A stretch of DNA of 12,483 bases. Origin: a virus (taxonomy: Duplodnaviria > Heunggongvirae > Uroviricota > Caudoviricetes). Every line of letters starts with the position of its first letter. The first letter of the stretch is position 1. The DNA lies in IMG/VR virus record IMGVR_UViG_2636415477_000012, one strand, 5' to 3'. The translations under genes were made by a program, and so were the position numbers. A model generated the notes under the pieces. It had not been told where the DNA came from. It was given only the letters and a program-made list of their open reading frames with translations, and did no database searches. Below are positions 694 through 12,483 of this stretch, in pieces.

Positions 694-2007
694 ATGGATA
701 AAGTCAAATATCCAACAGGCGTCGAAAACCACGGCGGCACATTACGCATCTGGTTTAATTTTAAAGGTAAACGTGTCAGGGAAAATCTTGGTGTCCCTGA
801 CACTGCCAAGAACAGGAAGATCGCCGGGGAACTGCGGACATCGGTATGTTTTGCCATCCGCACAGGAAGCTTTGATTATGCTGCACAGTTCCCTGACTCC
901 CCCAACCTTCAGGCTTTTGGGGTAAGTAAAAAAGAAATTACGGTGAAGGAACTTGAAGAAAAGTGGCTGGATCTGAAACGAATGGAAATCTCTGCAAATG
1001 CATTCAATCGCTATGAATCCGTTGCAAGAACGATGGTTTCGAAAATTGGAGGCAGTAGACTGGTGTCATCGGTAACCAAAGAGGAATTGCTGTATATCAG
1101 GAAAGATTTGCTAACCGGGTATCAGAATTCAACGAAAAACAAAGCAGCAGCAAAAGGACGGAGCGTCGTTACTGTAAATTATTACATGACGACAATCGCT
1201 GGAATGTTTCAGTTTGCTGCAGATCACGGTTACTTAGAAGCAAATCCCTTCCAGGGAATTAAGCCTCTTAAAAGAGCCAGGGCAGAGCCAGATCCGCTAA
1301 CTCGTGACGAATTTATTCGCCTGATAGATGCTTGCCGACATCAGCAGACGAAAAACCTGTGGTCATTGGCTGTGTACACAGGAATGCGTCACGGTGAACT
1401 GGTCTCCCTGGCCTGGGAAGATATCGATCTGAAGGCAGGAACAATTACCATCAGGCGCAATTATACGAAACTTGGTGAGTTCACTCTACCGAAAACTGAA
1501 GCAAGCACAAACAGGGTTGTGCACCTTATCCAGCCCGCTATCAGTGTCCTGAAAAATCAGGCTGAAATGACAAGACTGGGTAAGCAGTACAACATCAAGG
1601 TGCAACTACGTGAATATGGACGTTCAGTGAACCATGAATGTACTTTCGTGTTTAACCCTCAAGTGGTTAGAAAAAGCGAACAGGTAGGTTTTGTCTACAA
1701 AGTCGATTCTGTAGGTGACTCATGGGAAACAGCCATTAAGCGTGCAGGGATCAGGCATCGAAAGGCATACCAGTCACGACACACTTATGCGTGCTGGTCA
1801 TTATCTGCCGGAGCAAACCCAAGCTTCATTGCCAGCCAGATGGGCCATGCAAGTGCCCAGATGGTATTCAATGTATACGGAGCATGGATGACTGACAGCA
1901 ATGCAGAACAGATCGCAATGCTGAATCAGAAGCTGACAGATTATGTCCCAATGATGCCCCATAGTCACCAAAGTGACACCAGAGGCTTATTAAAATCAGT
2001 AAGTTAA
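694..2007 (+). CDS. int: Tyrosine-type site-specific integrase (lambdoid, Rac IntR-like)
   Basis: 437-aa ORF with GGAGGT Shine-Dalgarno. C-terminal tyrosine-recombinase signature: R in GMRHGEL, H-x-x-R in SRHTYAC, and Y in NVYGAW. N-terminal PTGVE...LRIWFNFKGKR resembles Rac-prophage-type integrases from memory. Confidence 0.9.
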   Translation: MDKVKYPTGVENHGGTLRIWFNFKGKRVRENLGVPDTAKNRKIAGELRTSVCFAIRTGSFDYAAQFPDSPNLQAFGVSKKEITVKELEEKWLDLKRMEISANAFNRYESVARTMVSKIGGSRLVSSVTKEELLYIRKDLLTGYQNSTKNKAAAKGRSVVTVNYYMTTIAGMFQFAADHGYLEANPFQGIKPLKRARAEPDPLTRDEFIRLIDACRHQQTKNLWSLAVYTGMRHGELVSLAWEDIDLKAGTITIRRNYTKLGEFTLPKTEASTNRVVHLIQPAISVLKNQAEMTRLGKQYNIKVQLREYGRSVNHECTFVFNPQVVRKSEQVGFVYKVDSVGDSWETAIKRAGIRHRKAYQSRHTYACWSLSAGANPSFIASQMGHASAQMVFNVYGAWMTDSNAEQIAMLNQKLTDYVPMMPHSHQSDTRGLLKSVS

Positions 2008-2018
2008 TCCTTAATACC

Positions 2019-2435
2019 CGTCATGTTAACTGTGTGGAGGGTAACACCACGCTTTATGCCCTGCCGAAACCCGAGGTTGTCCTGCGCTGGCGTGAGCAGA
2101 CCACAGATGACTTCCGCTTCTGTTTTAAGTTTCCGGCGACCATTTCGCATCAGGCAGCATTACGGCATTGCGATGATTTAGTGACTGAATTTTTGACCCG
2201 CATGTCACCGTTGGCTCCGCGCATTGGACAATACTGGCTGCAACTGCCTGCCACATTCGGCCCACGGGAGCTGCCTGCGCTTTGGCATTTTCTCGATTCT
2301 CTTCCCGGTGAATTTAATTATGGGGTGGAAGTCCGCCATCCACAGTTTTTCGCCAAAGGGGAAGAGGAACAAACGCTTAATCGCGGTTTACATCAGCGCG
2401 GCGTTAATCGGGTGATTTTTATTAGACACGTTTAA
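2019..2435 (+). pseudogene. yecE: Internal fragment of a DUF72-family (yecE-like) chromosomal gene, lacking its 5' end and with a divergent 3' end
   Basis: Translation VEGNTTLYALPKPEVVLRWREQTTDDFRFCFKFPATISH carries the DUF72 motifs (VE.N.TFY..P and FRF.FK....H). No upstream start or N-terminal region is present; after ...GVNRVI (about 2415) the frame runs into AT-rich sequence and stops at 2433-2435. Flanked by int on the left and the serine recombinase on the right. Confidence 0.55.
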
Positions 2436-2459
2436 ATACACTACCTAAAGCGATACAAT
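2431..2459 (+). promoter_or_regulatory. Candidate sigma70-like promoter for the serine recombinase gene
   Basis: TTTAAA (2431-2436), 17-bp spacer, TACAAT (2454-2459), about 30 bp upstream of the ATG at 2488 with GAGGTGG Shine-Dalgarno. Hexamer match only. Confidence 0.25.
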
Positions 2460-2487
2460 CTAGGTATCAGTTTTGAGGTGGTAAACA

Positions 2488-3747
2488 ATGAAACGTGTCA
2501 TTTCTTACATCCGGTTTTCATCTGAGAAGCAATCCCGAGGTGATTCATTACGCCGACAATCTAAGATGGTTACAGATTGGCTTAAGGCTCATCCTGAGTA
2601 CTACCTTGACCAAGACTTATCTTTTCGTGATTTGGGGGTGAGTGGATTCACTGGTAAGCACTTGAAAGGTGGCTTAGGTGACTTCTTAACCGCTATCGAG
2701 AAAGGGCTTGTTAAAGCTGGTGATACGCTCTTGATAGAATCTCTTGACCGTTTGTCACGCCAGAACGTAGACCGAGCAAGTGAGCTATTACGAAACATTC
2801 TTCGCTCTGGTGTAGATGTAGTCACCTTGTCCGATGGTGAACATTACACACGAGAATCTCTTAAAGACCCGTTAGCTCTGATTAAAAGCATTCTGATAAT
2901 GCAGCGGTCGCATGAGGAGAGTTTGAGGAAGTCTGAGCGTATACAAGGTGCATGGAACCGTAAAAAAGAACTCATCTCTGAAGGTATCAAGATTTCTAAA
3001 CGTTGTCCTGCATGGCTTAAGCTTAATGATGACCGTAAAAGCTTCTCTGTGATACCTGAGAAAGTAGAGACTGTGAAGAGGTGCTTTCAGCTACGGTTAG
3101 AGGGCAAATCTATCTGGGAGATTGTCAGGACTCTTAATGATGAAGGTCACCAGACACTTAACCAGTACAAAGCAGGTAAGTTTGGTCAAACCTCAGTGCA
3201 AGACCTTCTGAAGAATCGCTCTGTAATTGGTTACTTCACACCTAAAGGCTGTGAAGAGATTTCAGGTTATTACCCTGCAATTATAGATGAAACAATATTC
3301 TACAAAGTCCAGCAACTATCATATTCTCGTTATGGAAGAAAGCCTGCTTCAGATAAACCATTGAGCGTGAATCTTTTCAAAGGGGTTATCCGTTGTTCTG
3401 AATGTGGTCATGCTCTGATTATCACAGGCTTTAGCGATACAAGAAACGGGATTTATCGTTGTCCTCTTCGTAATGAAAACCGTTGTAGTGCTAAAGGACT
3501 TTCACGTAAGCAAACCGATGGTACATTGCTTACTCTGCTATCTCGTCTTGACCGATTTGATAGCGATACGACGAATATCATAGATATGTTGAGGCTACAC
3601 CGTGAACACATCTCAAGCAATATTGAAAAGCTGGTACAGCTATCACTTGAAATTGAAGATTTGTCAGCTGCGTATTTTCATGAAAGGAGATCACTCAATA
3701 ACTTCCATCGAGATCGGGTAATAACATTTGAACAGATCGCTGAATAA
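2488..3747 (+). CDS. Large serine recombinase (serine integrase), N-terminal ~397 aa native; the last ~22 codons and the stop lie inside the IS21-family left end
   Basis: Resolvase-type catalytic N-terminus VISYIRFSSEKQSRGDSLRRQ (Ser nucleophile), recombinase domain, Cys-rich zinc-ribbon CSECGH...YRCPLRNENRC, then the start of a coiled coil. The ORF continues from 3681 to 3747 through the GATC/AATAAC repeats that form the IS end. Confidence 0.85.
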   Translation: MKRVISYIRFSSEKQSRGDSLRRQSKMVTDWLKAHPEYYLDQDLSFRDLGVSGFTGKHLKGGLGDFLTAIEKGLVKAGDTLLIESLDRLSRQNVDRASELLRNILRSGVDVVTLSDGEHYTRESLKDPLALIKSILIMQRSHEESLRKSERIQGAWNRKKELISEGIKISKRCPAWLKLNDDRKSFSVIPEKVETVKRCFQLRLEGKSIWEIVRTLNDEGHQTLNQYKAGKFGQTSVQDLLKNRSVIGYFTPKGCEEISGYYPAIIDETIFYKVQQLSYSRYGRKPASDKPLSVNLFKGVIRCSECGHALIITGFSDTRNGIYRCPLRNENRCSAKGLSRKQTDGTLLTLLSRLDRFDSDTTNIIDMLRLHREHISSNIEKLVQLSLEIEDLSAAYFHERRSLNNFHRDRVITFEQIAE

Positions 3748-3780
3748 CATCGATGGAGATCACTTTTGACTCATTTTGTT
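3689..3780. repeat. Four phased 23-bp subterminal repeats at the IS left end, each starting with GATC
   Basis: GATC at 3689, 3712, 3735 and 3758 (exact 23-bp spacing). AATAAC at 3697, 3720 and 3743, i.e. in the first three units (same spacing). Unit 1 versus unit 3 match at 18/23 positions. Confidence 0.6.
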
Positions 3781-3861
3781 ATTCAGTGATCTCCATCAAT
3801 GTTATTGGAACTTCACAGGTGTGTTGATCTGTATCTTTTGCCATTCCGGTAAAGGATACCT

Positions 3862-5403
3862 ATGCCAACAGTTCCAATTTCTATGAGAAAACTTAAAGAA
3901 ATTCTTAGGCTTAAATACGGTGTTGGACTCAGCCATCGACAAATTGGTCGTAGTCTTGCAATCTCCCCTTCCGTTGTATCCAGATATGCTAATCGGGCGG
4001 CTCAACTTGGCATAAAGCAGTGGCCCTTACCTACAGGATGGGATGATACAAAACTAAAACATGCGTTCCTTCAGACCCAGGTTAAGATGAAGAAGCACTC
4101 TCTGCCTGACTGGGCTACAGTACACCGGGAACTGCGTAATAAATGCGTGACGCTGCAGCTACTCTGGGAAGAATACTGTGAGCGTAATCCAGGCGGTTTT
4201 TACAGCTATAACCATTACTGCCGGATGTACCGTGAATGGCTCAAAACCACTTCACCATCAATGCGTCAGGTACATAAAGCTGGCGAAAAACTTTTCGTTG
4301 ATTACTGTGGACCTACCGTTGGCGTTACCGACCCTGAGACCGGAGAAATAAGAACTGCTCAGGTCATCGTAGCTGTTCTCGGGGCATCAAGTTACACATG
4401 GGCAGAGGCCACCTGGTCTCAGCAGCTTGAAGACTGGGTGATGAGTCATGTTCGCTGCTTCCAGTGGTTGGGTGGCGTTCCTGAACTTGTTGTTCCGGAC
4501 AATCTGAAAAGCGCCACATCCAGGGCATGTAAGTATGATCCTGACGTTAACCCTACCTACCAGCAGATGCTTGAGCATTATAATGTCGCAGTTTTGCCTG
4601 CGCGGCCACGTAAACCGAAAGATAAAGCCAAAGCTGAAGTTGGCGTTCAGGTTGTTGAACGCTGGATCATGGCCCGAATCAGGCATGAGATCTTCTACAG
4701 CCTTGCATCGCTTAATCAGCGCATTCGGGAGTTGCTGGAAAGACTGAATAACAAAATAATGCAGAAGTTGGGTTATTCACGTGCAGAACTCTTCATCCAG
4801 CTTGATAAACCCGCACTGAAGCCTCTTCCTGAAGCCAGTTACAGTTACACCCTGGTGAAGAAAGTCAGAGTTCATGCCGATTACCACGTGGAAATCGACA
4901 AACATTACTACTCGGTTCCATGTTCGCTGTTAGGCCAGCAACTGGAAGCATGGATCTCCGGAGAACTGGTAAGACTCTTCAATCAGGGGCAGGAGGTTGC
5001 TGTGCACCCGCGCAAGCGTACTTATGGCTACAGTACCCGCAACGAGCACATGCCTGAAGCTCATCGACAGCATGCCACCTGGACGCCAGAGCGTCTTCTG
5101 GAATGGGCGGGGCACATAGGCAGTGAAACTCATAGTTATGTGCTTCATATACTGAACTCTCGTCCACATCCGGAACAAAGCTATCGCTTCTGCCTTGGAC
5201 TCCTGAACCTTCATAAAAAATACAGTAAAGCCAGACTTAATGCAGCATGTGCAAGAGCTCTGAAAACAAAGGTATGGCGTCTGTCAGGTATTAAATCGAT
5301 CCTGGAAAAAGGTCTGGATAAACAACCTGTTCAGGATCCAAAACCAGATCTGTTATCCACGATGGAACACGAAAACGTACGCGGCAGTGAGTATTACCAC
5401 TGA
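3862..5403 (+). CDS. istA: IS21-family transposase IstA
   Basis: 513-aa ORF with N-terminal helix-turn-helix region (LSHRQIGRSLAISPSVVSRY) and DDE-type core segments (LFVDYCG ... VVPDNLKSA ... KAKAE); immediately followed by istB. Confidence 0.9.
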   Translation: MPTVPISMRKLKEILRLKYGVGLSHRQIGRSLAISPSVVSRYANRAAQLGIKQWPLPTGWDDTKLKHAFLQTQVKMKKHSLPDWATVHRELRNKCVTLQLLWEEYCERNPGGFYSYNHYCRMYREWLKTTSPSMRQVHKAGEKLFVDYCGPTVGVTDPETGEIRTAQVIVAVLGASSYTWAEATWSQQLEDWVMSHVRCFQWLGGVPELVVPDNLKSATSRACKYDPDVNPTYQQMLEHYNVAVLPARPRKPKDKAKAEVGVQVVERWIMARIRHEIFYSLASLNQRIRELLERLNNKIMQKLGYSRAELFIQLDKPALKPLPEASYSYTLVKKVRVHADYHVEIDKHYYSVPCSLLGQQLEAWISGELVRLFNQGQEVAVHPRKRTYGYSTRNEHMPEAHRQHATWTPERLLEWAGHIGSETHSYVLHILNSRPHPEQSYRFCLGLLNLHKKYSKARLNAACARALKTKVWRLSGIKSILEKGLDKQPVQDPKPDLLSTMEHENVRGSEYYH

Positions 5404-5414
5404 TACGGGATCCA

Positions 5415-6164
5415 ATGATGAATCATCTTTACGAACAACTGACCGCACTTAAACTCACCGGCTTCCGTGATGCGCTTAAAAAGCAACTTGCTCAGCCGGG
5501 CACATACCAGGAGCTGGGCTTCGAAGAACGCCTGTCATTACTGACAGCAGAAGAACTAACCTGCCGTGAAAACAGGAAGGCAGAGCGTCTGATCAAACAT
5601 GCACGGTTCAGACTTAATGCTGAGTTATCAAAGCTGGATTATCGTAACAATAGAGGGCTGGACAGGGCCCTCATCCGTTCACTCAGTCAGGGAAACTGGT
5701 TAACCCTGAAACAAAATATTTTACTGACCGGGGCCACCGGCAGCGGTAAAACGTTCCTGGCATGTGCACTTGGTCATAATGCCTGCCGACAGGGATACAA
5801 GGTCTACTATTATCGCCTTAAAGCGCTGATGGAACAGTGCTATCAGGGGCATGCTGATGGAAGATACAGCAAACTTTTGACCAGGCTGAATAATAGCGAT
5901 CTGCTGCTTCTGGATGACTGGGGGCTGGAACCTCTCTCATCAGAACAGCGTAGCGACCTGCTGGAAATAGTGGATCTGATGTACCAACGAGGCTCAATCA
6001 TCGTAGTGAGCCAGTTGCCGGTGGAAAACTGGTACAAAATGATCGGAGACTCCACACATGCGGATGCCATCCTAGATCGACTGGTTCATGGCAGTATCAA
6101 GATCGAACTTAAAGGAGAATCAATGCGGAAAATACAATCTCCGTTGACCGAAGGAGATCAGTGA
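5415..6164 (+). CDS. istB: IS21-family ATP-binding helper protein IstB
   Basis: 249-aa ORF with Walker A GATGSGKT and Walker B LLLLDDWG; starts 12 bp after the istA stop. Confidence 0.9.
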   Translation: MMNHLYEQLTALKLTGFRDALKKQLAQPGTYQELGFEERLSLLTAEELTCRENRKAERLIKHARFRLNAELSKLDYRNNRGLDRALIRSLSQGNWLTLKQNILLTGATGSGKTFLACALGHNACRQGYKVYYYRLKALMEQCYQGHADGRYSKLLTRLNNSDLLLLDDWGLEPLSSEQRSDLLEIVDLMYQRGSIIVVSQLPVENWYKMIGDSTHADAILDRLVHGSIKIELKGESMRKIQSPLTEGDQ

Positions 6165-6200
6165 AGGTAATTTAAAAACGGTTCTGTGAAAGTGACACGA

Positions 6201-6237
6201 ACCGATCTCCATCGATGTTACTCACCGATCTCCTTCA
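6201..6237. repeat. IS right terminal inverted repeat with two phased GATC units
   Basis: GATC at 6204 and 6227 (23-bp spacing); the reverse complement matches the left-end units, including the perfect 17-mer gatctccatcgatgtta at 6204-6220. Confidence 0.6.
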
Positions 6238-6243
6238 CGGTAA

Positions 6244-6597
6244 TACGCATCAGCTATTACCAGCAAGCTAAAACAACTAAAGAATGAGCTATCACAGGTT
6301 GATGCGGATATCGAGAAGGAGACACAACGCCTTAAATCTATTGATGTGGGTTGTTTGTCTGATTGTGACTTGACTACAAAGGCGGGAAGGATTGAAGCAC
6401 AACTGATAATCAAAAGTGCTGTTAAAGAGGTCGTTTTAAATACTGCTAAACGTCGCTGTAAAGTGACTTTTCACAATGGTAGAGCAATCACCTTACCAAT
6501 AACAGAAAACCCCTCAGAGGACGTTACAGAGGCTATACAGTCGCTTTCTGAGGTCACTGAGAGGGGTTTAATAGATGTTGATGAGGTTATCATATAG
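6244..6597 (+). pseudogene. Probable C-terminal remnant of the interrupted large serine recombinase (coiled-coil region); has no ATG start
   Basis: Open frame from just after the TAA at 6241-6243 to the TAG at 6595-6597 translates to YASAITSKLKQLKNELSQVDADIEKETQRLKSID...; same strand and same reading-frame phase (position mod 3) as the recombinase; heptad-like charged sequence. The ORF track lists only a GTG-initiated part (6346-6597). Confidence 0.45.
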
Positions 6598-6611
6598 TTG
6601 AGATTCTATCG

Positions 6612-7385
6612 TCAGTATCGCTTGTTAGGATTAACAGAATACTTCTTCAAAGTACTACCTGTACCAGCATTATTAAGCACCTTTGAAGCTTGCTCATTAG
6701 CGGCATCTGAGAAGGTGCTTTTTCCGTTCTTAACTCTGACATTTTTACCACAATTGATACGGGCTTGAAGTTGCTCATTAGTAAGTTCACTCGTAGAGCG
6801 ATTATATAGCTCCTGACACATCAACATACCGTTACCTAAGCTTGTCGTAGTGTTCCCTGTATTCTTTTTACTGGTAGCACCACCATCACTTGTGGTAGAA
6901 GTCCTTCCGGTCGCAGCCGAGATATCAGTCTGACCCACAATAGCTTTAAAGTTAATTTCCTGAAAAGTTAATTGGATTCTAAGACCATTGGCAATACCAA
7001 CATCTTTAGAGGCTTTAAAGTTTGTAATAATTGAGTCGTCAATCTTAATACCATCTTTACAGACAACTGAGATAATTTGCTTCTGGTCACGCCAGTTTTC
7101 AAGAGTGTCTATGAAGTTTTCCACCAGCTTATTATCTCTTGAGATAAGGATACTACCGGATTCACCAACCACAACCACACCACTGATTGAAATAGTTCTT
7201 GGTGAACGCATTACATTATCTGTTACAGTCTGCCCTGATTGCATATTTTGAGTGGTAACCATCATAGGGCTGTCAAATTCCATGTTTTCAGTTGCTGATA
7301 GTGACAAGAAATTATCTGGTTGGCCTTGTAGATGGAAGTAAACGCCATCTTTACCACTGTAACGAAGCTGATTAGTGTAAATCAT
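6612..7385 (-). CDS. Hypothetical protein (257 aa) directly downstream of the tape-measure-domain gene; possibly tail-associated
   Basis: ORF-track entry 6612-7406 begins at a TTG. I prefer the in-frame ATG at 7385 (MIYTNQLRY...), preceded by AAGGAG 6 nt upstream. Ser/Thr/Gly-rich C-terminal half. No recognisable catalytic motif. Confidence 0.6.
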
Positions 7386-7460
7386 TAAATTCTCCTTTGA
7401 TTTCAAAGGCTTAGTGTATTTTAATCATTTTTAACCAAGCCTTTGATATATAAGTGTTTT

Positions 7461-7535
7461 CTCTGCTAAGCGTGTTGTACGTAAATTCTATTTTTCAGTG
7501 TGGGTATTAGCTTTACAGATTTCACGTAGCACACG
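7461..7535. repeat. Copy 1 of a ~75-bp conserved intergenic direct repeat, upstream of the 257-aa gene
   Basis: About 90% identical to 9691-9766; the conserved core cgtaaattctatttttcagtgtgg(g/a)tattagctttacagatttca(c/t)gtagcacac is read directly from the sequence. Sits 14 bp after the stop of the 709-aa gene and about 75 bp before the ATG at 7385. Confidence 0.85.
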
Positions 7536-7548
7536 GATATATAAGAAA

Positions 7549-9678
7549 TCATTCTTCCTCTGGATAGCTTGAACTTAAGAGCATATCCTGCGTGAACTGG
7601 TCATTAGCCGATTGACTGAAATTAAAGAAAGCTGGTTCATCCGGTCTAACAGTTGCTTCACCAGTGATATTAACTGACAAGGGCTTCTTAGCTTCTACTG
7701 TTAAAGCATCAACCTTGCGTGATAGTTCACTAATAGTCATTGCAAGTTGAGCATTGCTATTAACCATGTCACCTGTGATAGCTGGTGTAGTTGATTGTGT
7801 GTTATTAACAAGGTTACTCATTGGCTCTTGGAAGTTAGCAATTTTATTAGCTGCACCATTAAACCAGTCAGCGATAGAACTACCAATCTTAGCCCATCCA
7901 TCATTAATTTGGTTTGGTGTAGAATCGCCTTTGTATTCAGGGTTGAAGTTTGTCTCTGTTCCAATACCTGATTGATGTAAGTTCGGATTCTTAGCTGCTT
8001 CAGGGTTTAAATTATCAAGAGCAAAGTTTACCAACTCAGCATAAAGGACAACTCTACCGACTTTACTTAGCGCACCACCTGAAGAACCAGCCTTGCCAGC
8101 TTTAGCTTTATTAACAGCGTCACCGAATGAAGTAACAGCGTTTGCAAGGTTTAACAAGCCTCCTGCTACATTTGCAGCCTTTTGAGCAGTAACAGCTACG
8201 GCAAGCATCTTCAAACCATCAATTAACCCATCAGATAAACCATCAACAATTTTTTTCTGAGTGTCATTTAGTGAACGGTAAGCTAATGTCACCTCATCGA
8301 AGAACGCTCTTACCCTGTAACTGATATCAGTCAGGCTATCCACACCACTTGACATAGAAGTCATGAGACTACCAAGAGATTCACCAAGACTCTTACCGCT
8401 TCCACCTAAACTGTTTAAAAGCGTTGTTAGGCTTCTTGTAAAATCTTGCAGACCATTTTCAGAACCTCTAAAAATATCCGTTAATGAGTTATTCCAGGTA
8501 TTCTTTAAGTTCCCTAACATTGTCTGCGTAGAGTCCTGAATAGCTTTCCAGCCACCTCTGGAATTAATCTGTGAACCAAGTTCTTTAGCAAATTTAGGAA
8601 GTGCATCAGAGGCTTTAACATCACCATTTTTCATCTTATCGAAAAGCTGTTTTTCAGTCAGACCTAAAGCCTTTGCAAATGCCTGAGTAGCACCCGGTAA
8701 AGCTTCAGATAGTTGCCCCTTCAACTCCTCAGCCATCACCTGACCCTTAGAAGCCATCTGTGACACTGCGGTTAATGCTCTTTGAATCTGCTCATCTGAA
8801 CGACCCATTAAACGAGCATAACCTGTAAGGTTTTTAAATAACTCTTCTGACCCTTCAAGACCCATCGTAGTCGTTGCACTTGCACCAAATGAAGCAAATT
8901 GCGCTTGTGTTTCGGTTGTGTCCATACCAGTAATTTTAGTTAAATCTTGAATGAACTTTTTAACCTGTGTACTTTGGTCACCGAATACGAAATCAATACT
9001 TCTTTCCGATGATGCACGCTGTAAACCAACTTCCATTACTCGCTGATAAGCGGATAGTACAGCCTGAAAGCTGATAAATGCACCTGCTGTTTTCACTGCT
9101 ACTGAACTTAAATTATCAAGAGAACTAGCTGCTTTGTCACTATTAATGCTGGTGGATGTATGACCTCTGGCTTTAGCAATTGCTTCTCGTACACTTGAAT
9201 TTAGTTTAGCAAGGGCTTCATTAAATTTTGAATTATCCATTGACCCAGCTTTAGCAGATAGCCCGTAAAACTGACTCTTAATGTATTTCTCGACAATTGG
9301 GTTAAGACCTTTTAGCTTAGACATATTCGCTGAATAAGCTGCTGTGATTGCTCTGTTGCCGCTAATTCGTGGCTGTCTTGGCTGTCTAAGTGGCTTTAAA
9401 GTATCCTCAATTTCCGTTTTAATCTTAAACGCTCTAGTGTTTTTAAGACGCTGCTCAATCTTGTCAAAGGTCTTATTAAACTTCCTTTCAAGTTGCCCTA
9501 AAGAACTTGTCAGATTGCTGTCAAGTTGCTTGGTATCGACCTTAAACGCTCTATTCAAATTACGTTCAATTCTTTGTGCTGACTGCAAAGCTGCCTTTTC
9601 AACTCTTTGCAAGCCCTTAATAACGTTCTCGCTGAAGCCTAGCTCAACGATAAAACTATCAACTGTGAATTTGCTCAT
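7549..9678 (-). CDS. Tape-measure-domain protein (709 aa), phage tail tape-measure-like
   Basis: ATG at 9678 with AAGAGGTGA Shine-Dalgarno and an in-frame stop immediately upstream. Segment ELKGQLSEALPGATQAFAKALGLTEKQLFDKMKNGDVKASDALPKFAKELG matches the pattern of phage tape-measure domains as I recall it. Long helical, Gly/Ser/Ala-rich regions (GSGKSLGESLGSL, AGKAGSSGGALSKVG). Confidence 0.7.
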   Translation of the reverse strand: MSKFTVDSFIVELGFSENVIKGLQRVEKAALQSAQRIERNLNRAFKVDTKQLDSNLTSSLGQLERKFNKTFDKIEQRLKNTRAFKIKTEIEDTLKPLRQPRQPRISGNRAITAAYSANMSKLKGLNPIVEKYIKSQFYGLSAKAGSMDNSKFNEALAKLNSSVREAIAKARGHTSTSINSDKAASSLDNLSSVAVKTAGAFISFQAVLSAYQRVMEVGLQRASSERSIDFVFGDQSTQVKKFIQDLTKITGMDTTETQAQFASFGASATTTMGLEGSEELFKNLTGYARLMGRSDEQIQRALTAVSQMASKGQVMAEELKGQLSEALPGATQAFAKALGLTEKQLFDKMKNGDVKASDALPKFAKELGSQINSRGGWKAIQDSTQTMLGNLKNTWNNSLTDIFRGSENGLQDFTRSLTTLLNSLGGSGKSLGESLGSLMTSMSSGVDSLTDISYRVRAFFDEVTLAYRSLNDTQKKIVDGLSDGLIDGLKMLAVAVTAQKAANVAGGLLNLANAVTSFGDAVNKAKAGKAGSSGGALSKVGRVVLYAELVNFALDNLNPEAAKNPNLHQSGIGTETNFNPEYKGDSTPNQINDGWAKIGSSIADWFNGAANKIANFQEPMSNLVNNTQSTTPAITGDMVNSNAQLAMTISELSRKVDALTVEAKKPLSVNITGEATVRPDEPAFFNFSQSANDQFTQDMLLSSSYPEEE

Positions 9679-9690
9679 TCATATTTTTCA

Positions 9691-9766
9691 CCTCTTTAAG
9701 CGTGAGCTACGTAAATTCTATTTTTCAGTGTGGATATTAGCTTTACAGATTTCATGTAGCACACAT
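9691..9766. repeat. Copy 2 of the ~75-bp conserved intergenic direct repeat, immediately upstream of the tape-measure-domain gene
   Basis: Same orientation as copy 1. Its promoter-distal end supplies the Shine-Dalgarno (cttaaagagg on the - strand) 12 bp before the ATG at 9678. Confidence 0.85.
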
Positions 9767-9768
9767 AC

Positions 9769-9809
9769 AAAAAAAGGAGAAACTACCGATGTCACTCGAT
9801 AATCTCTCC
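9769..9809 (-). terminator. Candidate intrinsic terminator after the 71-aa gene
   Basis: On the - strand: stem GGAGAGA / TTTCTCC (one mismatch; + strand arms 9776-9782 and 9803-9809), ~20-nt loop, followed by seven T (A-run 9769-9775 on +). The loop is large, so it is weak. Confidence 0.35.
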
Positions 9810-9859
9810 CCGTACTATAGATTCGATAGAACCTATCTCATACACCCAACCAATCTTTT

Positions 9860-10075
9860 TTAATGCCTGACAAGATAATGTAGTTCCGTTTCACCTATGA
9901 TTTGAGCATCAGAAGGGATACGGTCAATACACCATTTTGGAATCTTGCGTGTTTTTGGTTTGCGTGAGGTGATAATTTGATGTTTGGTTTTAATTCTTAA
10001 GGCTGGCTTAGTTTGTAACTTTAAGTTTTCACAAACAGACTTAATAGTTTCATAGCGTTCTGTTAAATCAATCAT
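9860..10075 (-). CDS. Hypothetical small basic protein (71 aa)
   Basis: ORF-track entry; ATG at 10075 with GAGGTGA Shine-Dalgarno 4 nt upstream; Lys/Arg-rich; 22 bp after the stop of the upstream gene. Confidence 0.5.
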   Translation of the reverse strand: MIDLTERYETIKSVCENLKLQTKPALRIKTKHQIITSRKPKTRKIPKWCIDRIPSDAQIIGETELHYLVRH

Positions 10076-10097
10076 TCATCACCTCACATATGCATAA

Positions 10098-10802
10098 TTA
10101 AACAGCCTTGCTAAATTCTCGTGGAACACTCAGAAAATCATTGAAGCTGATAATCTGTGCCAACTCTTGACGGTACTCCTTAGCCAGCGCTTGATGGTCA
10201 CTAATCAGCTTAGCCAGTCTTGATTTCAGCAAATTAATCTCATTTTCTCTTGCTTTCATCAGTTTCTCTTTGGCAATTTCTTCAAGCTCAGCTTGTGATT
10301 TATCAGCAACAATTAGAGACAGTCGATGTGGTGCTCTGACAGCTCTTTCGGTGCGAACAACTCTTTGACCTTCTGGTAAATCTGCAATCACTTTACCAAT
10401 CTCTACAGGGTCATACCCCCAACCGTCACGGTCTAGTCGAGAGAAATAAGCATAAGGATTGGTTTGAAGCTCCATCAAAATAGCCATTTCGTCAATTTCG
10501 TCTTCAAGCTTGGACTGAATTTTCTCGTAAACACTTCTCATTGCTTCTTGAGAGTCTTTAATAGCTTGGAAATATCGGCGTTGTAGCTTCAACTTCAAAT
10601 CAAGCTCACATTCCTCATTCATCGAAAAATCAATTTCAACTCTTGGAATCTCGAGTGGTTCTGGTGGAATATATGGACCTTTATTTACTTCGTGTGATTC
10701 CCGCCAAGCTCTATCAAAAGATTCACGCAAAGTTAATTCGTGAATATCAAGTGCACTTGGTTTGTTTTCGATAATCATTTCATGTTCATCACGGATAGAC
10801 AT
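10098..10802 (-). CDS. Hypothetical acidic coiled-coil protein (234 aa)
   Basis: ORF-track entry; ATG at 10802 with GAGGAAAA Shine-Dalgarno; Glu/Asp-rich helical sequence; no recognisable motif. Confidence 0.65.
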   Translation of the reverse strand: MSIRDEHEMIIENKPSALDIHELTLRESFDRAWRESHEVNKGPYIPPEPLEIPRVEIDFSMNEECELDLKLKLQRRYFQAIKDSQEAMRSVYEKIQSKLEDEIDEMAILMELQTNPYAYFSRLDRDGWGYDPVEIGKVIADLPEGQRVVRTERAVRAPHRLSLIVADKSQAELEEIAKEKLMKARENEINLLKSRLAKLISDHQALAKEYRQELAQIISFNDFLSVPREFSKAV

Positions 10803-10919
10803 TATTATTTTTCCTCTTCTAAGATAATTTATGTTTCAGTTTTTAAAAAGCACACCTGACAGCCTACGAACTTAGAAGAGACTTAAAAGGCGTTTGCCAA
10901 GTATGCTTTTTAAAAGCTG

Positions 10920-10964
10920 AAAAAAGCCCTAAACATAGGTTCATCCTTATCTGTAAAGGGCTTT
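10920..10964 (-). terminator. Hairpin followed by a T-run (terminator-like or structured RNA)
   Basis: Stem AAAGCCCT (10923-10930) / AGGGCTTT (10957-10964), 26-nt loop; on the - strand the 3' arm is followed by TTT then CAGC (run of six T counting the stem). Confidence 0.3.
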
Positions 10965-11024
10965 GAAGGTTTGCTTATAACGTTAACGAAGTTTCAGGAA
11001 AAACTTTCTTTAAAAGCTCTGTTT

Positions 11025-11062
11025 AAAAACTCTTAAAGAAAGCCCTAACTCATGATTAGGGC
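11025..11062 (-). terminator. Candidate intrinsic terminator downstream of the HNH/HTH/107-aa operon
   Basis: Stem GCCCTAA (11042-11048) / TTAGGGC (11056-11062), 7-nt loop; on the - strand it is followed by TTTCTTTAAGAGTTTTT. Confidence 0.4.
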
Positions 11063-11286
11063 AAAGCTGTAAGGGTTCAATAATGAATGATTAAGCACTT
11101 TTTGATATATAGCCTATCTAGTGGGCTAAATAGGCCATGTAGCGAAAAGCATTGCACCTTTCAGAATAACTATCCCTAGATGTAGATGGAATTGTTGAAA
11201 GAAATAAGAGAGAATTGCTCTCCCATACTTAAAATTATGACATATTTAAGGTTATTTGTCAACAGCTTTTTAACAGATTGGTAACA

Positions 11287-11364
11287 TTAATTCTTATTTA
11301 CCGTGTTACCTACCCAGCAACCAACAAATAAACCCAAAGCTGTCCAAGCAATTATTAAGCCCAT
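11287..11364 (-). CDS. Possible 25-aa hydrophobic peptide (MGLIIAWTALGLFVGCWVGNTVNKN)
   Basis: I translated it by hand. Its ATG overlaps the TAA stop of the upstream 107-aa gene (TAATG). Single predicted transmembrane-like stretch. No other support. Confidence 0.25.
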   Translation of the reverse strand: MGLIIAWTALGLFVGCWVGNTVNKN

Positions 11365-11687
11365 TAATGCACCACCTTCGAATCCGTAACCAAAATATTG
11401 TCAGCGTACAAAATTGCTATAGCTGCCTTGAGATATTTTTCAGGGCTAACGCTGTATTTGTTCGTTTGCTCGATAACCAATCTTTTCATGTTGCTGTCTT
11501 TAATTGGTAGCATCATTCGAGGCTCGTTAAACTCCACCGAGTGAATAAAGTCAGAGATGCTTTCCGCATTATCAGCCATTAACTCTAACAACTTATCAAA
11601 GTCAATGCTAACACCTACATCAGTGAAAGCCTGAATCATCATAGCGGTGTCGTTATCAACGAAAATTTGCATTGGGTGATTATTCAT
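11364..11687 (-). CDS. Hypothetical acidic protein (107 aa)
   Basis: ORF-track entry; ATG at 11687 with AGAGGAA Shine-Dalgarno about 8 nt upstream. Confidence 0.6.
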   Translation of the reverse strand: MNNHPMQIFVDNDTAMMIQAFTDVGVSIDFDKLLELMADNAESISDFIHSVEFNEPRMMLPIKDSNMKRLVIEQTNKYSVSPEKYLKAAIAILYADNILVTDSKVVH

Positions 11688-11765
11688 TTTTAAATTCCTC
11701 TAAAACACATCTTAAATCTGCCAAAATAGCCATTCTGAGGCCAGTAACCATGCGGGTTACAGAGG

Positions 11766-11812
11766 GAGTGAGACACCTTAGTAATAGGGTAGCTCATCTT
11801 TGAGTCTCACTC
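11766..11812. promoter_or_regulatory. 9-bp inverted repeat in the 137-bp intergenic region (possible operator or RNA structure)
   Basis: GAGTGAGAC (11766-11774) and its exact reverse complement GTCTCACTC (11804-11812), 29-bp spacer; no T-run follows, so not scored as a terminator. Confidence 0.3.
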
Positions 11813-11824
11813 ATTCTCACAGGC

Positions 11825-12211
11825 TTACACAGACGCTTTAATCTTGTAGTATTGACTACGTGATAAGCCGTATTTCTCAGAAATATAACTTTGTGATTGT
11901 CCTTTGGTGATTGCATCAATGATTAAATCTTTATTGTATCTGTTGCCATTGGTTTTGTGCTTGTCACCACTTTTAATAGAGTTGAAATTCTCAATTAATT
12001 TAATGGCGTCTTTAAGGTCGTCTTCGTAAGCATAATCAAAACCCCTGATAAACTCGAAATCACCATTATCTTTTTGTGCTTCAGCCCAGATATCAAATCT
12101 TGAGGCTAATTGCTGGTGGGTAAACTTGGGTTTATTGGTTTGTGTTACGTCCCTCCAGATTCTACCGTCAAATCTTACCAAATGGTCACGATGTTTATAA
12201 AAGTCATACAT
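11825..12211 (-). CDS. Hypothetical protein (128 aa from the ATG at 12211) with a C-terminal helix-turn-helix
   Basis: The ORF-track entry starts at a TTG (12244). I prefer the ATG at 12209-12211, which overlaps the upstream TAA (TAATG) and has GGAGG 5 nt upstream. C-terminal DLIIDAITKGQSQSYISEKYGLSRSQYYKIK resembles resolvase/transposase-type helix-turn-helix. Confidence 0.6.
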   Translation of the reverse strand: MYDFYKHRDHLVRFDGRIWRDVTQTNKPKFTHQQLASRFDIWAEAQKDNGDFEFIRGFDYAYEDDLKDAIKLIENFNSIKSGDKHKTNGNRYNKDLIIDAITKGQSQSYISEKYGLSRSQYYKIKASV

Positions 12212-12483
12212 TAAACCTCCTGTAGTAAGTTGTTTGGGTGGCAATTTCTTTTATTACCATCCTTGAAGATAATCTTTTTAGTTGCCTGAACTTCATGATG
12301 CAAAAACCAGATGACATACTTCAGATAATAATCACGAGTGCCATAACGAATCATTGGATTACCGTAAGCATCATCTCTTGTCTTAACCTCTCCGCCATCA
12401 ATCCATTCAAGCATTCCTGTTTCGTAATTAATCATGAAGTAAGTTGCAAAGAACCGTTTAATATCATCTCGCCATTGCTTCAT
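12211..12483 (-). CDS. HNH-endonuclease-like protein (HNH_3-type pattern); possibly 5'-partial at the window edge
   Basis: YGTRDYYLKYVIWFLHHE...IIFKDGNKRNCHPNNLL resembles the H...DGNK.NN..NL pattern of phage HNH endonucleases, but the usual His before DGN is replaced (FKD), so it may be degenerate. ORF starts at an ATG at the last base of the window. Confidence 0.45.
   Translation of the reverse strand: MKQWRDDIKRFFATYFMINYETGMLEWIDGGEVKTRDDAYGNPMIRYGTRDYYLKYVIWFLHHEVQATKKIIFKDGNKRNCHPNNLLQEV

Follow-up and report, generated by a model that had tools for sequence, protein, structure and literature searches.

GATC-centred units in 23-bp phase at the ends of an ISEc12 copy within a prophage serine-recombinase gene

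A stretch of viral DNA assigned to the Caudoviricetes (IMG/VR record IMGVR_UViG_2636415477_000012; 12,483 nucleotides, referred to here at its full length as the window) carries four GATC tetranucleotides exactly 23 bp apart at the place where the open reading frame of a large serine recombinase comes to its stop. What are these repeats, to which gene or element do they belong, and does their GATC tie them to Dam methylation, as a sequence-only reading of this DNA had proposed by analogy with IS10 and IS50? We read the phased GATCs as the cores of putative binding units for the transposase IstA, set at the canonical spacing of the IS21 family in a known element, and we put the probability of this reading at about 85%. 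Both the element and the architecture of its ends are already known, and the plan of the ends agrees with the published description of the family.

A catalogued IS21-family element

The repeats belong to the left terminal inverted repeat of the catalogued IS21-family element ISEc12, which sits here inside a prophage serine-recombinase gene. Positions 3669-6249 of the window are a complete copy of 2581 bp with 5'-TG...CA-3' termini, and ISEc12 positions 1-2581 match, at 100%, hundreds of E. coli plasmid and chromosomal copies that carry the annotation "IS21-like element ISEc12 family" (RefSeq/PGAP naming). No sequence difference separates the window copy from catalogued ISEc12 over the 2581 bp, with both ends, istA and istB included; what is new is the site, the serine-recombinase gene of a prophage. 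Of 5426 complete E. coli genomes, 1909 contain ISEc12. In independent copies the match breaks off precisely at the equivalents of 3669 and 6249. The left terminus starts with TGCGTATT at 3669, the right terminus finishes with AATACGCA at 6249, and the two ends align as inverted repeats with the TG...CA termini that are characteristic of the IS21 family. The sequence-only reading had recognized an IS21-family left end, which the identity with ISEc12 bears out, but it had started this end at 3681 and had allowed that the true end might lie inboard of 3741, with the first two units being recombinase sequence. The terminus is actually at 3669, therefore all of the repeat units are IS sequence. The element and its two genes are arranged as follows:

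3669..6249, plus strand: ISEc12, 100% identical to annotated copies, with exact ends; an empty site exists
3862..5403, plus strand: istA, DDE transposase of 513 aa (Pfam rve, Mu-transpos_C_2)
5418..6164, plus strand: istB, AAA+ helper ATPase (Pfam IstB_IS21, E = 2e-67), with the start codon taken from the RefSeq annotation of identical copies

The order istA then istB is the two-gene arrangement of the family, and both products pass the NCBIfam IS21 equivalog cut-offs, IstA with 310 bits for transpos_IS21 (cut-off 160) and IstB with 270 bits for IS21_help_AAA (cut-off 200), which also upholds the earlier family assignment. The catalytic core of IstA is homologous to that of IS5376 IstA (PDB 8b4h/8q4d, E = 3e-13), with a phmmer alignment that covers residues 107-389 only. 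The N-terminal helix-turn-helix (HTH) region of ISEc12 IstA gave no phmmer alignment to IS5376 IstA, and residues about 10-50 contain an HTH match below the Pfam threshold. The homology to IS5376 IstA, together with the many identical copies elsewhere, suggests that IstA and IstB transpose ISEc12 via the repeats.

Architecture of the ends and the inverted unit

GATC occurs at 3689, 3712, 3735 and 3758 (spacing 23/23/23), and AATAAC keeps step with it at 3697, 3720 and 3743. With Tandem Repeats Finder, the array at 3686-3761 has a period of 23 and 3.3 copies, and four equally spaced GATCs were obtained in 0/5000 composition-preserving, block-wise shuffles of the window; the 23-bp pattern is therefore not due to chance. 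Further GATC sites are located at 3788 and 3826 in the left end and at 6156, 6204 and 6227 near the right end, with 6204 and 6227 again in 23-bp phase. The four left GATCs, the AATAAC series and the phasing of the right-end pair had all been picked out from the letters of the sequence, and each was confirmed. From left to right, the units are:

3669..3694, plus strand: L1, the terminal unit, with tip TGC, block GTATT and core GGAGATCAC at 3686-3694 (GATC at 3689)
3695..3717, plus strand: L2, 23 nt, with AATAAC at 3697-3702 and core CGAGATCGG (GATC at 3712)
3718..3740, plus strand: L3, 23 nt, with AATAAC at 3720-3725 and core ACAGATCGC (GATC at 3735)
3741..3763, plus strand: L4, 23 nt, with AATAAC at 3743-3748 and core GGAGATCAC (GATC at 3758)
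3786..3808, minus strand: L5, an inverted unit after a 22-nt gap from L4, reverse complement AATAACATTGATGGAGATCAC (GATC at 3788)
6152..6160, plus strand: core-like GGAGATCAG just before the istB stop, in opposite orientation to R1 and R2 (GATC at 6156)
6202..6224, minus strand: R2, the second right unit, reverse complement TGAGTAACATCGATGGAGATCGG (GATC at 6204)
6225..6249, minus strand: R1, the terminal right unit, reverse complement TGCGTATTACCGTGAAGGAGATCGG (GATC at 6227)

L1 aligns to the reverse complement of the right terminus, and L2-L4 share a single plan of AATAAC, seven variable nucleotides and a core around GATC. With L1-L4 and R1-R2 at 23-bp spacing, the element has the multiple direct repeats of the IS21 family, which take in part of the terminal repeat. 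A GATC at the place equivalent to 6156 is also present in Pseudoalteromonas relatives; the standing of GGAGATCAG at 6152-6160 as a candidate binding site is uncertain, and it is also coding sequence.

The ends of IS21-family elements are described as direct repeats L1/L2 and R1/R2 "separated by 23 bp", of which two complete repeats are needed for integration, and within each repeat two conserved blocks are set about one helical turn from each other (PMC10122671). The earlier view that the repeats of this locus are of the kind bound by IS21-family transposases is well founded in this respect, the 23-bp spacing being a published feature of the family (PMC10122671). In the IS5376 structure, one IstA is bound to each repeat through two HTH domains, with HTH-2 on the first block and HTH-1 on the second, both reading the major groove, and the HTH-1 of the catalytic IstA subunit is located near the R1-R2 junction (PMC10122671). 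In each 23-bp unit of ISEc12, an A/T block lies towards the tip (AATAAC, but TATT in the terminal unit) and the core (GGAGATCAC) lies away from it. By analogy with the IS5376 complex, each unit would bind one IstA protomer, with HTH-2 contacting the A/T block and HTH-1 the core. An IstA tetramer would synapse L1 and L2 with R1 and R2, the 23-bp spacing would aid the wrapping of the ends as supercoil-like crossings, and L3, L4 and the inverted L5 would be accessory sites. GATC would recur every 23 bp because it is the centre of the core recognized by the IstA of this lineage. The GATC core may be the HTH-1 site judging from position only, next to the unit junction; the assignment of IstA domains to blocks and the accessory role of L3-L5 are likewise argued by analogy.

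ISEc12 resembles IS5376 and IS21 in its TG...CA ends, its 23-bp direct repeats, its two-block repeats and its homologous DDE core. It differs from IS5376 in the size of IstA (513 aa versus about 400 aa), in an HTH region that is not alignable by sequence, in a left end of four direct units and one inverted unit where IS5376 has two, and in blocks that are A/T-rich (AATAAC) and GATC-centred, whereas those of IS5376 are GC-rich. The two-repeat-per-end complex of IS5376 does not account for a five-unit left end with an inverted unit. Looking further afield, Mu and Tn7 also have several spaced transposase sites at each end with left/right asymmetry, and IstB is comparable to MuB and TnsC as a dedicated AAA+ partner (PMC10122671). 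However, Mu and Tn7 belong to another transposase branch and are much larger elements, and the accessory sites of Mu have a known role.

An IstA scan with one genome per species gave 53 loci. The ISEc12 clade among these has hosts in Enterobacter, Psychromonadaceae, Psychrobium, Aeromonas, Rheinheimera and Pseudoalteromonas, and its IstA identities to ISEc12 are 93%, 59%, 57%, 56% and 55%. Clade elements generally have four direct left units, 23 or 24 bp apart and with a GATC in each, as well as two or three right units with GATC; the remainder of each unit differs. The number of direct units is not the same in all apparently intact copies, with three in Aeromonas media, four in A. rivipollensis and two in two Pseudoalteromonas copies. 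At the level of sequence, this variable number agrees with the published result that two units suffice.

L4 and L5 form an inverted repeat, and here a second reading has to be weighed. The partner pair that had been noted at 3745-3761 and 3788-3804, with one mismatch, was found again and is longer, extending to 22 nt (3743-3764 and 3785-3806, 95% complementary). The 22-bp arms enclose a 20-nt spacer, and the single strand has a predicted fold of -16.2 kcal/mol (z = -5.3). Arms of this length and complementarity, and a fold of this stability, would suit a separate regulatory element at 3743-3806 that is no part of the synaptic end, acting either as an IstA operator that limits transcription into istA or as a stem-loop in read-through RNA or single-stranded DNA. 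Such a role is also favored by the recurrence of the inverted unit in relatives, as its GATC lies 30 bp past that of L4 in Aeromonas, Rheinheimera and Pseudoalteromonas elements and 32 bp past it in some Psychromonadaceae elements, while Burkholderiaceae elements have four inverted units. In an Enterobacter relative (L002), L4 and L5 share one G-to-A change. Additionally, the differing number of direct units in apparently intact copies implies that not all units are needed for synapsis. However, both arms are ordinary units, so that the orientation of the sites alone explains the palindrome, the inverted unit is absent from Psychrobium and ISSso4-like elements, and 3669-3861 gave no promoter-like or terminator-like site. 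We consider a separate regulatory element at L4/L5 possible but rather unlikely.

The putative recognition core and the question of Dam control

Under the reading of GATC as the centre of an IstA-binding core, the core should be examined across relatives. In the first 50 nt, anchored on the terminus, seven sub-lineages of the ISEc12 clade have no invariant columns other than the tip TGC, TATT, two GATCs and one C. GATC is kept in all left and right units of elements in which IstA is only 55-60% identical, and most other positions vary. For a wider comparison, the left ends of 22 related elements (IstA 37-93% identical), the wider ones sampled from plasmids by tblastn, were cut into 23-nt blocks from the terminus using no motif as anchor. 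Nearly all 22 elements show the same periodicity of units, and at nt 21-26 most of them have the core G-R-N-C-R-C. The cores are distributed as follows:

GATCAC or GATCGC: ISEc12 clade; ISSso4-like elements of E. coli
GTGATCAC: Burkholderia vietnamiensis, Ralstonia and Cupriavidus (ISRme9-like), with four direct and four inverted units
GAACAC: ISAs29 family (E. coli and Aeromonas plasmids); a Francisellaceae element and a related MAG
GGCCAC or GGACAC: Pseudomonas, Trichlorobacter
GGACAG: Aliarcobacter
TGCCAC: Nitrosomonas
GTGACC: Burkholderia aenigmatica
GC-rich cores: Alphaproteobacteria

The fit to G-R-N-C-R-C is loose for TGCCAC, GGACAG, GTGACC and the GC-rich alphaproteobacterial cores, and one Novosphingobium element has GATC cores in part of its units. 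Units of non-GATC elements agree with one another in the core just as closely as units of GATC elements do. The G and the C of GATC are common to most core variants of the family, and two positions alone define GATC. These alignments show a core that is shared widely and varies at two positions, and GATC is best read as one of its variants. In a neighbour-joining tree of IstA, the non-GATC lineages (the ISAs29 family, Pseudomonas and Nitrosomonas) fall between GATC lineages, thus the core state would have changed more than once, although the deep branches of this tree are unreliable. The table of drifting cores (GATCAC, GAACAC, GGCCAC, GGACAC and TGCCAC) could provide a specificity-swap set for studies of IstA recognition. 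The residue that follows a conserved Val in the putative HTH-1 helix is Ser in five of seven GATC-core lineages; its possible link with the core type is a lead only, from a sample that is too small.

A further reading concerns the GATCs as methylation sites. The methylation state (full, hemi or none) of the GATC in every unit would alter the binding of IstA HTH-1, or the cluster of six GATCs within 140 bp would recruit SeqA post-replication. We regard this as improbable, and the coupling of ISEc12 transposition to replication-fork passage that would follow, like that of IS10 and IS50, has an equally low chance in our view. The hosts of the clade all belong to the Enterobacterales, Alteromonadales and Aeromonadales, orders that carry Dam, SeqA and MutH, and the ISSso4-like elements of E. 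coli have GATC cores too. A Dam-linked function would likewise predict a GATC that is invariant across the seven sub-lineages of the clade with other positions mostly variable. Among close ISEc12-like elements (about 93% IstA identity), 0/20 unit-GATC columns vary versus 17/120 others (P about 0.05), a difference for which binding-site constraint accounts equally well. Adenine N6-methyl groups sit in the major groove, and the GATCs of E. coli are methylated. The HTH domains of IS5376 read the conserved blocks in that same groove (PMC10122671). Action of Dam or SeqA on the ISEc12 ends in E. coli is possible for these reasons, and the comparison of elements is neutral to negative toward it. As a separate observation, a Dam site in every putative IstA unit arose independently in the ISEc12 clade and in ISSso4-like elements.

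The distribution of cores among hosts speaks against Dam control. All units of the Burkholderia vietnamiensis, Ralstonia and Cupriavidus elements have GATC cores, as does part of the Novosphingobium element, and GATC methylation is not known in these hosts, whereas ISAs29-family elements, which come from Dam+ hosts, use GAACAC instead. Distant relatives keep 23-bp units with GAACAC, GGCCAC, GGACAC or TGCCAC cores. GATC-core lineages make up 2/3 in Dam+ hosts versus 2/11 elsewhere, an association that is not significant (one-sided Fisher test, p about 0.18, calculated by hand on lineage counts without phylogenetic correction and with host Dam status from general knowledge). That only two positions define GATC, its G and C being common to most core variants, also counts against Dam control. 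The success of ISEc12 in Dam+ E. coli (1909/5426 genomes) implies that full methylation is no block to the element. The proposal of Dam control made from the sequence thus gained no computed support. The first relatives had suggested that GATC cores are confined to Dam+ hosts, a candidate rule that the Burkholderiaceae and the ISAs29-family plasmid elements overturned; GATC also occurs where the host is not known to methylate it, host Dam status again being general knowledge.

The known cases of Dam control offer a second comparison. In IS10, IS50 and IS903, GATC also overlaps the transposase promoter, and dam dependence has been experimentally shown (general knowledge; PMC9296519). ISEc12 is like these elements in having a Dam+ host and GATC within its putative transposase-binding ends, in the cores of L1-L5 and R1-R2. 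It is unlike them in that no promoter overlap was found and that the GATC core is also present in relatives from hosts without Dam. A consensus scan, which weak promoters would escape, gave no sigma-70-like site in 3669-3861, and by this weak test no promoter-like site, that of the transposase included, lies over the GATCs. A candidate promoter that abutting the two ends would create (TTCACG at 6234-6239 and TATTTT at 3673-3678) agrees at only 8/12 positions. A link between the IS21 family and Dam is absent from the literature searched, in which a search on ISEc12 ends or an IS21-Dam link returned catalogue mentions only. It is doubtful that methylation or SeqA at the six left and three right GATCs gates the assembly of the IstA tetramer and limits transposition to a post-replication window. 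If true, ISEc12 would be the first Dam-controlled IS21-family element, with methylation acting at every transposase site and not at a promoter, and replication-coupled control of transposition would reach a family that is important for the spread of resistance plasmids.

The insertion site and the interrupted recombinase

The copy of ISEc12 in the window, with its GATC-centred putative IstA units, has split a gene whose parts can be traced on both sides:

2488..3668, plus strand: 5' part of the large serine recombinase gene, 393 codons (Pfam Resolvase, Recombinase, Zn_ribbon_recom)
3664..3668, no strand: left copy of the target-site duplication, TCAGC, with the same pentamer at 6250-6254
6250..6254, no strand: right copy of the target-site duplication, TCAGC; the two copies flank ISEc12
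6255..6597, plus strand: the 3' remainder of the recombinase gene, now displaced: final base of the split codon, 113 codons and the stop

Target-site duplications in the IS21 family measure 4-8 bp, and the 5-bp TCAGC is a short duplication of this kind. Two of three other ISEc12 copies examined have 5-bp duplications, GTTAG and CCTGT; relatives of ISEc12 also show 5-bp duplications, and the Nitrosomonas element has one of 8 bp. When 3668 is joined to 6255, a single open reading frame of 507 aa results, equal in length to the intact homologue. Uninterrupted genes that match the joined 800-nt sequence are present in 193 E. coli genomes; the best match, in strain H2, aligns in a single piece at 95.8% identity, and the uninterrupted gene of H2 has a single copy of the pentamer, which reads TCCGC. 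The last of the alternatives takes the repeats for something other than IS sequence, either iterons of a plasmid or phage or repetitive coding sequence for the recombinase C terminus. It can be dismissed, as the superficial likeness of the repeats to replication-origin iterons and the passage of the recombinase frame through three of them are outweighed by the hundreds of unrelated contexts in which the repeat sequence accompanies istAB at 100% identity, by intact recombinase genes without repeats in other genomes and by a reading frame that resumes at 6255, the empty site refuting both versions.

The interrupted frame, at 2488-3747, runs into ISEc12, from which it takes 26 final codons (3669-3744) and the TAA that ends it (3745-3747), and the IS-encoded tail foreseen in the sequence-only reading is therefore real. 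This stop lies within the AATAAC of L4 (3743-3748). Truncation by ISEc12 has cost the recombinase its final 114 residues, a loss that has probably locked the prophage in place.

GATC content of the prophage and of ISEc12

The prophage DNA flanking ISEc12 shows strong avoidance of GATC. To the left of the element (window 1915-3668) the motif is absent where ~9.5 copies are expected, and to the right (6250-12483) it is again absent, with ~24 expected. The stretch at 1-1914 holds 8 copies (7.9 expected) and ISEc12 itself carries 23, and the only Dam sites of this prophage are those introduced by the element. GATC avoidance has been reported among some enterobacterial phages.

The interrupted serine recombinase and the surrounding prophage

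The following features flank or are interrupted by ISEc12:

694-2007, tyrosine integrase, separate from the serine recombinase and just upstream of its gene
2034-2435, DUF72 gene fragment, also just upstream of the serine recombinase gene
2488-3747 and 6255-6597, large serine recombinase with Resolvase, Recombinase and zinc-ribbon domains
6612-9678, minus strand, Dit-like and tape-measure tail genes with short Felixounavirus phage matches

The serine recombinase is broken after residue 393 with the loss of its final 114 residues, and through this truncation the prophage has probably lost its integration/excision enzyme. The similarity of the Dit-like and tape-measure genes to Felixounavirus phages (e.g., Escherichia phage garuso) is limited to short stretches of ~80-83% nucleotide identity, and any single phage record covers at most 9% of 6255-12483. 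Among E. coli chromosomes, the best match to the ISEc12 flanks reached 95.8%, and the complete-genome set therefore lacks this prophage variant.

Variation of the end units among relatives and remnants

The number of direct left-end units, which are putative IstA-binding sites, varies even between copies of one element. In Aeromonas, L026 and L027 differ in this way (four vs. three), and in Pseudoalteromonas L014-L024 carry four whereas L030 and L052 carry two. These differences look like deletions through recombination between units. In an Enterobacter asburiae relative (L002, 1-150), units L1, L4, and L5 have all replaced G by A two bases ahead of GATC (GGAGATC becoming AGAGATC), whereas the right-end units R1 and R2 have not, suggesting that the left-end units changed in concert.

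The ISRme9-like relatives from Burkholderia, Ralstonia, and Cupriavidus (L059, L061, L072) have the 8-bp palindrome GTGATCAC as their unit core. In their left ends, the four direct units precede a set of three or four inverted ones, which places 8-13 GATC sites upstream of istA. These hosts are not known to have Dam.

A decayed remnant of an ISEc12-related left end adjoins pefI on the Salmonella Enteritidis virulence plasmid (L068, 301-411) and is 82% identical across IS nt 1-116. It has kept all three AATAAC blocks and lost all three GATC sites, now TATA, GGTC, and GCTC; at 18% divergence, the chance of losing all three is ~1 in 6. The IstA encoded on a 2511-bp contig of a Moraxella osloensis assembly (L001) matches ISEc12 IstA at 100% identity, most likely owing to assembly contamination or very recent transfer. 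Moraxella osloensis is a species far from Enterobacterales.

The right end and the abutted ends

A further core-like site lies just before the istB stop:

6152-6160, GGAGATCAG, in the orientation opposite to R1 and R2

This site mirrors the inverted left-end unit L5, and Pseudoalteromonas relatives have GATC at the equivalent position; it is inseparable from the coding constraint on istB. In IS21 tandem or circle junctions, the two ends meet across a gap of 2-3 bp. So arranged, TTCACG of the right end (6234-6239) and TATTTT of the left end (3673-3678) would stand 16-17 bp apart, and the abutted ISEc12 ends would form a weak promoter (8/12) reading into istA.
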